Source of the DNA: Acidiferrobacteraceae bacterium
GTDB lineage: Bacteria > Pseudomonadota > Gammaproteobacteria > Acidiferrobacterales > SZUA-150
Direction of reading: 5' to 3'
DNA length: 64,000 bases
Assembly (NCBI GenBank): GCA_003228915.1
Contig: QIGL01000003.1
Coordinates: 4,998-68,997, forward strand
Position numbers and translations under genes: made by a program. The notes beneath the pieces were generated by a model. It was not told the DNA's origin and searched no databases. It worked only from the letters and a program-made list of their open reading frames with translations. This document shows positions 48,993 through 52,857 of the stretch, piece by piece (within the stretch, counting starts at the first letter, position 1; each line of letters opens with the position of its first letter).

Positions 48993-49433
48993 TTTTTCAT
49001 CCTCAAGTTACTAAATATAGGTTATTTGAGCCGTAGCATACGGGAATGTTCCCCCTTAAATCAACCTGAAGACTGACAGAAATCAGGTAGAACTCAAACA
49101 GCATAAACCCGTAAATCAGGCTGGTAATCAGCAGATTCATTGGGTATTCTTCGGCTCGCTGCAAACGGGCCAATTATCGCGTTATGCGACTCATATGGAG
49201 GCTAAAAATGCCAATTTCAAGCAATTTTAGAGTCCAGGCACCGTCTTCGGGCGAAACTAAAGTAAAACCCGGAATCCAGTAAAGCGGCGTAATAATACTG
49301 AGGTAAGTAAGTGAATTAGAATTTTAAAGAATAAAATAAGTTTTATCTGGAGAGGTGGTCGCCAAGCAGCGGTGATTGTTACAAATTGGAGTAAATAAAA
49401 AATAGAAAATAATTAAGCAAAATATTGATTACA

Positions 49434-49523
49434 GGAGAGGTGGCAGAGTGGTCGAATGCGGCGGTCTTGAAAACCGTTGAGGGTTTATCCCCTCCCAGGG
49501 TTCGAATCCCTGCCTCTCCGCCA
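49434..49523 (+). tRNA. tRNA-Ser (anticodon UGA), type II with a long variable arm, CCA encoded
   Basis: The acceptor stem is GGAGAGG/CCTCTCC. The anticodon stem-loop is GCGGT-CTTGAAA-ACCGT, the variable arm is GAGGG...CCCTC, and the T-arm is CAGGG-TTCGAAT-CCCTG. The 3' end is G-CCA. Confidence 0.95.
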
Positions 49524-49530
49524 TTAATAT

Positions 49531-49555
49531 AAAAAGGGGCTTTGCGCCCCTTTTT
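49531..49555 (+). terminator. Palindromic terminator hairpin after tRNA-Ser
   Basis: The sequence is AAAAAGGGGC-tttgc-GCCCCTTTTT, with a 5-bp GC stem and A/T arms on both sides. Confidence 0.75.
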
Positions 49556-49556
49556 A

Positions 49557-49939
49557 TATTTATTGTCTGTGATGTGGCTTCGAACCACACACCGGGTGAG
49601 AATCTGCCACACAGGATGTGCAAATGCCGTGGAGCACATGGAAGTGCGGGAACGGCCCTATGGGCATGGCAAGGATTGTTCCAGACAATCCTTTTGCACT
49701 AGAACCGCCTTTGGCGTTTCATCAAGTACTTCCTGCGCTACGCTCCGGTCGCATTCCCACCCACTGTAGAATCCCTTCGGGCTTCATTCAGCATTTCCTC
49801 GCTTTGCTCAGGTCATCCCTGGTGGTCAGATGCCCAGGTGCCGCGAGCACAGGGACGACATACATGGACGTATAAGTGTCGCGGGAGACAGGAAGTCGGG
49901 AGCGACTGGCAGGAGCGGCCTGCCTCAATATTAGTAGGA
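49557..49939 (+). other. Unclassified GC-rich, hairpin-dense intergenic element (candidate structured ncRNA or insertion remnant)
   Basis: My hand count over 49561-49920 gives about 56% G+C, against AT-rich flanks. No credible ORF is present. There are several perfect stems (for example AAGGATTGT/ACAATCCTT at 49671-49693, and GGCAGG/CCTGCC). The element ends at a plus-strand terminator. Confidence 0.4.
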
Positions 49940-49961
49940 GGGGCCTTGCGCCCCTTTTTTT
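49940..49961 (+). terminator. Plus-strand rho-independent terminator (near-copy of the tRNA-Ser terminator)
   Basis: The hairpin GGGGC-cttgc-GCCCC (49940-49954) is followed by T7 (49955-49961). The T-run is present only in the plus orientation. Confidence 0.7.
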
Positions 49962-49963
49962 AA

Positions 49964-51739
49964 TCAAGGCCTGTAACTGGGTAACTCAACGACATAGGCA
50001 TCTACGGAATTACCGCCACCCCAGTCACTGCCGAATAACAAACGTGTCCCGCTTGGGCTGATCACGACCTGGGGCTCGGCCCAGTATCCACGGGGCCCGG
50101 CCTTACCAAAGGTGCGATTATGGCCGACACGGCAGACTTGCCCGCCGGCATTGGTATTGGCCAGTAACAACTCATTGGCCAGCACGGTTTGACCGCTGGT
50201 ATTGCCGACGATTGATACCGCCACCCAGCCGGGAGCCTGAAGCGCCAGTGCCGAAACATGGGTGCCTGAGGGAGGATAAGGATAACCGGTACTGGGACCG
50301 ACAATCACACGGGAACTGCCGTCATTCATGTCATTGGTCACCAGCGATCCGGTAAGAGCGCCGTCAAAGGCAACCGCATTGTGGGTATCGCGACCGTTCG
50401 CAAGGCGTCCAAGGGAGGCGTGATCAAATGGATTGGCGATACTCAGGCTGCGTACGAAGTTCATATTAAGGTCACGCACCTCGGCGGCGCCGCTGTTAAT
50501 AAAAAATAGCTGTGAACCACTAGCAGACGCAATGGGTGCCAGACCACCTGATGCGGCCGCGGTTGTCCCTACCGTATCAGTACTGATTCGATAAGAAAAC
50601 GAGGTGCCTGATGAACAAGACAGTCCGATGACATCGGTGTCCCACGACATATACATGGGGTCACCGCCGCCACTGATGCTACCGGCAGGGCAGGTGGACG
50701 AGAAATCGCGAACCGCCTGCTTGGTATCGCTGCTAATAAGATAGCGGGTCAATGTCTTGTTGCTGCTATTTACATAATAAAGAATGTCTGGGTCGGTTCC
50801 ATGCCAGTAGAATTGCTCAAGATCCGGTGGATTGATGCTCAGTTTTTTGATGTGTTGATAGGTTTTGCCATTGTATAAGTGATGGCCAGCCCCACCCGGC
50901 ACACCGGAGCCGGTGTGGTACAAAATCAGGTAAGACTCATCAGCATTCCAGGCCGGTATGGTCGAATAGGCTGGTTTGATTACACCGGTGCTGCCAGCGT
51001 TACTGATTCGGCGAATGGTTGTGCCGAATTGGGGATCTGTCACCGCGACCCCGACTGCCGGTTTTGCCAGCGCCGTCATGGGGTGAGCAGCTTTGTCTGT
51101 AATCAGTCCGGCACAAAGATCTGCCACATTACCCGATGAGTAAAAAGCAGTCACGACCTGATTCTGATTCATTGTAACGGTGCATGGTGCATTGCCACTA
51201 CAGGCACCGCTCCAGCCAACAAACGTGTAAGTTGGGTCAGGCGTTGGCGTCAGGGTAACCGACGTACCATCTGCGTAGGATTGCGTGCAATCACTGCCAC
51301 AATTTATTCCAGCCGGACTACTGGACACAGTACCACCAGTATTAGTGCTGACAACCAATTGATAGGTGCCGGGTGCCGCAGTTACAAAGTTCGCGACCAC
51401 TGATTGATTCTGGGTCATGGAAACAGAACAGCTGCTGGTTCCGGTACAGGCGCCGCTCCAGTTATTAAAAACAAAGCCACCACCAGGCGATACTGTTAAC
51501 GCCACCTGTGTGCCACTTATATAATCTTCTGTGCAATCACTGCCGCAGGAAATACCAACGGGTGTACTGGACAAGGTGCCAGTTCCCGTGGTGGAGGCGT
51601 CCAGTGTGTACAAGATGCTGTTATTGATTGGCGGCGTTGCTTCTACTGATCCTTCTGAAGAACAAGCGGAAATTGCTAATACCGAAAAAAAGACAAATAG
51701 AAGTCGTACCATGATAATGGGTCGGTGCTTTGTGAGCAT
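49964..51739 (-). CDS. Predicted lipoprotein with two InlB-B-repeat-like Cys-containing modules and a C-terminal beta-propeller-like domain
   Basis: 591 aa with the lipobox 'LAISAC'. It has two ~75-aa repeats of the form '...SSTPVGISCGSDCTEDY..GT.V.LT..P...F.F..WSGAC.G...C.V.M.QNQ.V.A.F'. The C-terminus ends 'SPSGTRLLFGSDWGG'. The gene is GC-rich relative to its neighbours. Confidence 0.7.
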   Translation of the reverse strand: MLTKHRPIIMVRLLFVFFSVLAISACSSEGSVEATPPINNSILYTLDASTTGTGTLSSTPVGISCGSDCTEDYISGTQVALTVSPGGGFVFNNWSGACTGTSSCSVSMTQNQSVVANFVTAAPGTYQLVVSTNTGGTVSSSPAGINCGSDCTQSYADGTSVTLTPTPDPTYTFVGWSGACSGNAPCTVTMNQNQVVTAFYSSGNVADLCAGLITDKAAHPMTALAKPAVGVAVTDPQFGTTIRRISNAGSTGVIKPAYSTIPAWNADESYLILYHTGSGVPGGAGHHLYNGKTYQHIKKLSINPPDLEQFYWHGTDPDILYYVNSSNKTLTRYLISSDTKQAVRDFSSTCPAGSISGGGDPMYMSWDTDVIGLSCSSGTSFSYRISTDTVGTTAAASGGLAPIASASGSQLFFINSGAAEVRDLNMNFVRSLSIANPFDHASLGRLANGRDTHNAVAFDGALTGSLVTNDMNDGSSRVIVGPSTGYPYPPSGTHVSALALQAPGWVAVSIVGNTSGQTVLANELLLANTNAGGQVCRVGHNRTFGKAGPRGYWAEPQVVISPSGTRLLFGSDWGGGNSVDAYVVELPSYRP

Positions 51740-52301
51740 AATTGTTTTCCTAAAAAATTACTTCGCCTTCCGGTGACGAAATCTCCCTGTTTTGGGGTTA
51801 GTGTTTTTATGTCACCCAAACTCTAGACAAGCAGTAGTAACAAAAAAAGATACATATCTGCACATGTGCCAAATGGTTTATTTTTCAGGATAATCGGAGT
51901 AGATATTTTTTTAAAAAAACCAAGTGGTTAATTTATAGGGATAAGCGGTGCAGGCTTACTGTACTTATTATTAATTGAGACAGAAAGTAATTGAAAAAAA
52001 CGGGAGGGGTTACAGCTAAATCAAGGGCACTATCTTTTCGAGCAGTCATACGTACTTGAGTCGTCGAATACAAGACGGACACCACCAGGTAAGAATTATT
52101 ATTTATGTAAGATCAGGTAGTATTAGATGAGAAGCGAAGCGGTTCAGAAGTTGGCAGCTATTTTTTTTGGTGATTTCCTGATAGCCGCTAACTTTATTGA
52201 AAAAGTATATTTGGATTATAAAAAAGAAAACTAAAAACATGAAACATAGGATAGTTCATCAAAAATAAAAGCAATTATTTTATGCGCCATTCTGAATAAA
52301 A

Positions 52302-52685
52302 TTATTCACTATTCTGTATTTTTCTTAGTTTTGCCCAATCCCATCCTATAACTTCACCGTCGAGAAAAATGACAGGTACAGTTTGAGTCAGCTTTATAGA
52401 TGTGAACGGTGGATACTTTCTGTTCAGGTAATAGTAGACTTCATATTGTTTTTTTCCTGATTCTATAATTTCTTTTTTATAGGGATTTGGAGCTATGCCA
52501 TTACCGGTTTCAGCGTGGTCGTTACCCATAAATTCCCTGACCTGTTCTTTGGGCATATTTAGTTCAATTTTATTCAAGTTGACCCGGTTGTTTGATATCA
52601 ATTCCTTGAATGATATTTCTTCTGCAAAACTAACATAAGATATCAGAAACAGGATCGGGAAAAATATTACGGGCATATTCCTCAT
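52302..52685 (-). CDS. Small secreted protein (DUF3192-like)
   Basis: 127 aa with an N-terminal signal sequence and a 'MPKEQVREFMG.....' BamE/SmpA-like pattern. The family assignment is from memory only. Confidence 0.5.
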   Translation of the reverse strand: MRNMPVIFFPILFLISYVSFAEEISFKELISNNRVNLNKIELNMPKEQVREFMGNDHAETGNGIAPNPYKKEIIESGKKQYEVYYYLNRKYPPFTSIKLTQTVPVIFLDGEVIGWDWAKLRKIQNSE

Positions 52686-52857
52686 TAAATTATCAGCCTT
52701 ATTATGAGTTGTAGTCTATCGTGTGAATATGATATTTTCATTTATAACTTAAAGCCATTATTAATTACAATTAAACCAATCGTTAACTGTCGAGATTGCA
52801 TGGTGTAAGCATAGAGAGCAGGACAGTAAGCGTTCTTTAGTGTAAAATCAGCGACTT

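Follow-up and report, generated by a model that had tools for sequence, protein, structure and literature searches.

Background

Among the described systems, the one closest to the locus studied here is RtT (rttR; Rfam RF00391), the family of 178-bp repeats of the Escherichia coli tyrT operon. The RtT RNA is released from the tyrT transcript, and a possible role in the stringent response has been attributed to it (Bosl and Kersten 1991, as cited in PMC4986893 and PMC3318445). When the RtT model was run on E. coli K-12, a total of 16 matches was obtained, four of which are located at tyrTV (133–137 bits). Perfect 19-nt copies of the tRNA-Tyr end were found there at +160, +338, and +516 after tyrV, with a period of 178 bp, and behind every one of these copies the trailer of the tRNA is repeated. 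The 3′ end annotated for the rttR RNA coincides exactly with the CCA of the first tRNA-Tyr copy. The remaining E. coli matches are presumably located at further tRNA operons of the K-12 map.

Another type of system with relevance for this locus is represented by intergenic mosaics of short repeat modules, such as the BIMEs of enterobacteria. NIMEs are likewise intergenic mosaics of short repeat modules and are defined by dRS3-type 20-bp inverted repeats, as described in PMC1797815.

The locus belongs to a 64,000-nt stretch of contig QIGL01000003.1 (GenBank assembly GCA_003228915.1, order Acidiferrobacterales), and the term window is used for this whole stretch; coordinates given without a contig name refer to it. 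A preliminary description of the window had singled out a GC-rich, ORF-free, and hairpin-dense element downstream of a tRNA-Ser gene, bracketed by two terminator hairpins, and had offered three readings for it: an unannotated structured sRNA (possibly a Csr/Rsm-type sponge), read-through cargo of the tRNA transcript, or a small insertion that had duplicated the tRNA terminator. We compared this element with the rest of its own genome (G000), with the sister species (G001, one other genome of the genus), with further genomes of the order, and with E. coli. Based on these sequence comparisons, the segment 49562–49963 is probably a degenerate unit of the RtT family (RF00391), the core of which would have been swapped for hairpin modules.

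The tRNA-Ser locus and its two terminators

The tRNA-Ser(UGA) gene that is trailed by the repeat unit was located at 49434–49523 of the plus strand (ARAGORN; 60.1 bits with the Rfam tRNA model). It is followed, on the same strand, by a terminator palindrome at 49526–49560 with a 15-bp perfect stem, an A run on its 5′ side, and a T run on its 3′ side, which was detected both by a terminator scan and by folding (−20.4 kcal/mol, z = −5.6). Judged by its matching flanks, this proximal palindrome is the orthologue of the single terminator present in the sister species. The distal terminator, a duplicate of the tRNA trailer, occupies 49939–49961 of the plus strand and was recognized by folding. As stated in the preliminary description, the two hairpins are near-identical: 49535–49555 and 49939–49959 agree at 20 of 21 positions and differ by a single base in the loop. 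A pattern search of the whole genome (116 contigs, 2.66 Mb) found the hairpin sequence at these two places only, which marks the pair as a true local duplication as opposed to a widespread terminator type.

On the plus strand, the distal hairpin folds with −15.0 kcal/mol and is followed by a run of seven T, while the minus strand (−12.3 kcal/mol) shows no U run, in agreement with the strand preference that had been noticed earlier. Its stem is GC-rich and 6 bp long; the hairpin was missed by the terminator scan and predicted by folding. It ends 2 nt from the stop codon of a converging gene (49964–51739, minus strand), which encodes a protein of 591 aa with InlB B-repeat domains (Pfam PF18998), was taken from the ORF list, and is considered here only as context. 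The distal hairpin would end any plus-strand read-through and would act as a weak terminator for the converging gene.

The G+C content of about 56% that had been given for the interior is correct (55.7% for the 377 bp of 49562–49938, as compared to 45.8% for the genome); the contrast with the surroundings holds for the upstream flank only, the converging gene reaching approximately 58%. The claim that none of the ORFs looks protein-like was confirmed, the overlapping ORFs of 75–86 aa being without a Pfam match, and all the stems that had been named were recovered by sequence check and folding. Taken over its full length, the segment has only a slight folding advantage over its shuffled versions (z = −1.9 for the plus and −2.8 for the minus strand).

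Hairpin repeat modules of the interior

When the segment was used as the query against the own genome, 46 matches were retrieved, and the individual modules, all given here on the plus strand, were resolved by per-base counts together with inspection of the copies. The interior opens with the L module (49562–49604), which, judged by an HMM and by the way it aligns with the 5′ portions of the relatives' RtT units, appears to be what is left of the 5′ region of such a unit. The A module (49613–49657) is a small hairpin repeat with approximately five other copies in the own genome. Three A modules stand in tandem on contig C18 (30272–30424), where the orthologous locus of the sister species (L108:430–640) carries a chain of B, A, and other modules instead. 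The B module (49664–49698), a 9-bp perfect hairpin, was found by pattern in 37 copies in the own genome, in 9 copies in the sister species, and in 18–22 copies in a genus of another family, while the reversed-pattern control gave 0. Variants of B in which both arms of the stem have changed in a compensatory manner also occur, which points to selection for the hairpin, acting on either DNA or RNA. The C′ module (49699–49750) is a diverged relative of C, and the combination of B with C′ is found twice elsewhere, in the sister species, with 85–86% identity. The C module and the GC-rich hairpin that follows it (49751–49832) are present in 7–12 copies with 93–96% identity, and many of the C copies are situated at contig ends. 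The last module of the chain, D (49853–49918), is an A-type hairpin module; no other copy of it was found in the own genome, and it is multi-copy, with 85–91% identity, in many genomes of the order. It abuts a stretch of 8 nt (49919–49926) which is identical to 49509–49516 of the tRNA and is interpreted as a putative relic of a copy of the tRNA-Ser 3′ end.

Modules B and C were also encountered as passengers within a miniature element bounded by terminal inverted repeats (TIR), of which at least 60 copies exist in the own genome. This miniature element (e.g., C11:84518–84620 and C5:81875–82045) has inverted repeats of approximately 35 bp and a basic form of approximately 140 bp, and its longer forms, which coincide with many contig ends, contain nested B and C modules. 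A full-length parent with a transposase was not seen in the own genome. The presence of hairpin modules at many contig ends probably explains many of the assembly breaks. A REP/RAYT system was considered as well and rejected: four matches to Y1_Tnp were obtained, their flanks matched (blast) only other, low-copy repeats, and the one Y1 transposase flank that was inspected (on contig C11) belonged to a different repeat family. Some modules resemble the third hairpin of RtT and may derive from it. Nothing relevant was found in the literature on the sequence of the B hairpin or on long terminator duplications.

In common with NIMEs and BIMEs, the interior of the element is a chain of short, mostly hairpin-forming modules that recur between genes at many places, their order and number differing from site to site, and modules of this type differ between the orthologous loci of the two sister species. 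On these comparisons, the module arrays turn over quickly. Unlike in NIMEs, the modules are not separated by dRS3-type 20-bp inverted repeats, and, in contrast to NIMEs and BIMEs alike, no REP-associated transposase is linked to them and the chain is set inside an RtT-type frame.

RtT-like units across the order

Downstream of tRNA-Ser, genomes from other families of the order carry a palindromic terminator, an element of 100–135 nt, and a copy of the tRNA 3′ end. A sequence model was built from four of the elements that trail tRNA-Ser in these relatives, and with its help related elements of 110–135 nt were detected in 62 of the 103 genomes of the order (1–23 copies each, roughly 300 units altogether). 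Each of the best 30 copies is located beside a tRNA gene; 25 of them begin 34–79 nt past this gene and share its orientation. Of the 24 units inspected, nearly all are closed by a perfect 19-nt copy of the neighboring tRNA's 3′ end, which begins inside the T loop; the tRNAs involved are those for Ser (four anticodons), Gln (two), and Arg (two). Together with tRNA-Tyr of E. coli, this means that the same RtT body is present after at least nine tRNA species, with a partial match at Glu. Tandem stacking was seen for several units, and a repeated trailer likewise for several. A complete unit is composed, in this order, of the tRNA trailer, an RtT body of approximately 110–130 nt, a duplicate of the final 19 nt of the tRNA, and often the trailer again.

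When the elements of the relatives were compared with Rfam, they were identified as RtT (RF00391), with scores of 48.2 bits (cut-off 45), 40.3, 40.1, 31.8, and 28.4 bits, and in the RNAalifold prediction the 5′ end of the element pairs with the tRNA-like 3′ end. The possibility of a whole pseudo-tRNA, i.e., a decayed tandem copy of tRNA-Ser, was also checked and discarded, as only the 3′-end copy is significantly tRNA-like (z < 1.2 for the 5′ half).

Comparison of the window copy with RtT units

The window copy resembles RtT by being placed directly downstream of a tRNA in the same orientation, its start 39 nt after tRNA-Ser falling within the range of 34–79 nt observed for the relatives (25/30). 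It is bracketed by copies of the trailer, which is repeated after the unit (20/21 positions) as it is in E. coli and in several relatives. The L module can be aligned locally with the 5′ parts of the relatives' RtT units (z = 5.9, 4.4, and 3.5), and, as for RtT, the presence of the unit varies between close relatives. At the distal side, a tRNA 3′-end copy may be represented by the putative relic, which with its 8 nt could be due to chance and lacks the CCA; perfect 19-nt copies are found in most of the 24 units inspected in the relatives and in E. coli. In three genomes (G091, G055, and G040), RtT units that are intact in other respects have an A-type module within their tRNA copy, and the window relic is likewise preceded by such a module. 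In G009 and G025, the tRNA copy at tRNA-Ser(UGA) is cut at the same point as the window relic, and G009 carries a full RtT-like unit at this tRNA (E = 2e−21). A sequence similar to the right end of the segment is also found at one site of the sister species (L107), with no tRNA in the approximately 200 bp that were read upstream of it.

In contrast to RtT, the core is missing from the window copy, and hairpin modules that look unrelated to it are found instead. The trailer also differs, being a strong palindromic terminator, which makes read-through transcription of the tyrT type doubtful at this locus. No match to RtT (RF00391) was obtained in 49250–50050 at E ≤ 10, nor in the own genome or that of the sister species at E ≤ 1. 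Our own RtT-unit model, run with filters off, found nothing inside 49562–49938, a profile HMM of the unit found one weak core-like copy in the own genome (contig C101) and none in the window, and BLAST searches with the L module across the order returned no useful matches. Since both the Rfam model and our own are negative, the window copy is not assigned to RtT by model, and its homology rests on position, on the 30–45-nt alignment, on the 8-nt relic, and on the duplicated trailer.

Under the reading of a degenerate RtT unit, the 5′ portion of the RtT body and 8 nt of the copied tRNA end would have survived in the window copy, which would also have retained its place and orientation directly behind tRNA-Ser and the second trailer, in this lineage a palindromic terminator. 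The core of the body would have been replaced by the chain A, B, C′, C, and D, the modules of which are scattered over this genome and those of relatives and may have arrived by nested insertion. The unit itself could have been gained or lost through the duplicative dynamics of RtT arrays, with the repeated tRNA end and trailer serving as sites of recombination or slippage, and the element would now have no dedicated function. Of the earlier proposals, read-through cargo of the tRNA transcript comes closest in spirit to such a descent from RtT, but this copy has neither an RtT core nor a 3′ end of the tRNA type.

The sister species and other tRNA sites

An empty site, for which a check had been suggested in the preliminary description, exists in the sister species, where tRNA-Ser(UGA) is followed by one terminator and then directly by the stop codon of the converging gene. 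The extra DNA of the window relative to this site corresponds to 49562–49963, that is, the element and one copy of the terminator. The single terminator of the sister species combines the loop of the distal window copy with the flanks of the proximal one, so neither a simple insertion nor a simple recombinational loss fits without extra substitutions. As a description, a small insertion with duplication of the tRNA terminator is supported by the sister species, which has one terminator and no element; the trailer duplication belongs to the regular features of RtT units and is not the usual target-site duplication of a transposon.

The element at tRNA-Ser(UGA) is absent from the sister species as well as from G004 and G005, which belong to the same family, and RtT units are present at this tRNA in genomes of three other families. 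Given its absence in these three genomes, a later gain is more parsimonious than descent from an ancestral RtT unit at this place; within the family, the more parsimonious course of events would be a gain at tRNA-Ser in the lineage of this genome. A loss of the unit in the sister species by recombination between the repeats is possible as well.

The HMM of the L module matched three places in the genome, all of them directly 3′ of tRNA terminators. At tRNA-Ser(GCU) beside csrA, the own genome has a terminator, L, B, and a second, similar terminator, and the sister species has one terminator. In this region (C24:7894–8262), csrA is followed by tRNA-Ser(GCU) and tRNA-Arg(ACG), an order that presumably corresponds to csrA-serV-argV of E. 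coli. Near the putative coordinate of that E. coli region, two weak matches to RtT were obtained. At tRNA-Glu (C3:52431–52751), a perfect direct repeat of 61 bp, consisting of the last 15 nt of the tRNA and the terminator, brackets an insert of 138 bp. Within this insert, a fragment from the 5′ part of RtT is present together with module C in the reverse orientation, and the insert partially matches our own RtT-unit model R1 (positions 14–51). A related insert with a different interior is present at the tRNA-Glu site of the sister species, where the second repeat has decayed.

Alternative explanations

A functional plus-strand sRNA encoded between the two terminators, for instance a sponge that binds CsrA/RsmA, is a very improbable explanation. 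The genome does contain two csrA genes, and the segment has in common with CsrB, RsmY, and RsmZ that it is non-coding, hairpin-rich, provided with some GGA loops, and closed by a terminator; several of its hairpins show GGA in or near the loop (e.g., at 49614 and 49891), the A-type module keeps its hairpin shape while the stem sequence changes between copies, and the T run of the distal hairpin is found on the plus strand only. The count of about 12 GGA triplets given earlier also stands (11 in the segment, 12 with the distal hairpin flank). Compared with 7.1 ± 2.0 in shuffled sequences (p ~ 0.04), the 11 triplets amount to a marginal enrichment, which makes a Csr/Rsm sponge unlikely; the density is barely above background, unlike in CsrB, RsmY, and RsmZ, and of the 12 triplets the minimum-energy fold leaves just one completely unpaired. 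The range 49000–50300 contains no promoter-like site, and a strong terminator is placed immediately upstream of the segment. Searches with Rfam, the Csr/Rsm models included, recovered only the tRNA, both in the whole window at curated cut-offs and in 49250–50050 at E ≤ 10. In addition, the locus is missing from the sister species, and instead of a unique gene the sequence represents a mosaic of dispersed modules that occur at dozens of sites, some of them within miniature transposons.

We regard it as unlikely that an independent miniature mobile element, unrelated to RtT, was inserted beside the terminator and that the hairpin is its long target-site duplication. The empty site in the sister species, the duplicated hairpin that is unique to the locus, the clearly multi-copy modules of the interior, and the existence of three tRNA sites (Ser-UGA, Ser-GCU, and Glu) with inserts bracketed by copies of the local trailer would all be accounted for, and the TIR-bounded miniature element with B and C as passengers provides a likeness to MITEs. 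The ends of 49562–49938, however, are not inverted repeats, the flanking repeat is a local terminator of at least 21 bp instead of a short target-site duplication, the right ends differ between copies, and what flanks the four Y1 transposase genes are other repeats and not these modules. Bracketing by tRNA end and trailer is moreover the regular architecture of RtT in E. coli, and the L module aligns to RtT 5′ parts. A CIME-like relic of an integrase-driven element at the tRNA, in which the repeats would be attL and attR and the interior would have been deleted, appears very unlikely. In its favor, the direct repeats of the relatives begin within the tRNA T loop, which is a classical site for integrases, the distal copy in G028 carries the T-stem of a different tRNA-Ser, as though the element had brought it along, and units with different terminators are stacked in tandem. 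An element-borne att site would not predict the same body at at least eight tRNA species with perfect local tRNA ends, no integrase-bearing relative of the element was seen, and none of the three tyrosine recombinase genes of the genome is situated near these sites (one is near tRNA-Met); two of the three, to go by their size alone, are probably XerC and XerD. The repeated local trailers agree with a model of duplication or template switching.

Implications

With the locus read as a degenerate RtT unit, a false sRNA candidate is removed and the locus gains a concrete annotation. RtT-type units can decay below the reach of the Rfam model and yet stay recognizable by their frame, i.e., the position after a tRNA, the duplicated trailer, and the relic of the tRNA end. 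Of more interest, as a by-product, is the general occurrence in the order of RtT units tailored to their tRNAs; as such units are common, strictly linked to tRNAs, and tailored to the neighboring one, the way in which they are made is open to comparative and experimental tests. A more far-reaching idea, offered tentatively and with considerable doubt, is that RtT units are products of active tRNA-directed copying and not passive tandem repeats, and that in this genus the family shed its core and spawned the hairpin modules, which have since spread through the genome. If this were true, the window would show a recent gain at tRNA-Ser and one of the stages by which a dispersed repeat family is born from a tRNA-operon element.

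Other observations around tRNA genes

Approximately 45–85 nt upstream of tRNA-Ser, a stretch at 49347–49392 starts like the tRNA's own 5′ end (10 nt) and is conserved in the sister species; it was considered as an RtT unit and rejected, since the similarity is not significant (z ~ 1.5). A real RtT-like unit upstream of tRNA-Ser(UGA) is present in G025.

Partial copies of tRNA-Met were observed as direct repeats at C73:3549–3812 and C49:14082–14790, one set being near the only non-Xer tyrosine recombinase gene (C49:15913–16458). These repeats look like an ordinary island site of the integrase type.

Between tRNA-Ser and cysG, the window contains two genes (49964–52700), the one with InlB B-repeats and a DUF3192 gene, past which no further terminator or tRNA-end copy was found. 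In G004, G009, and G025, cysG comes directly after the tRNA region, so the two genes look like an islet that was inserted at the flank of tRNA-Ser in this genus.
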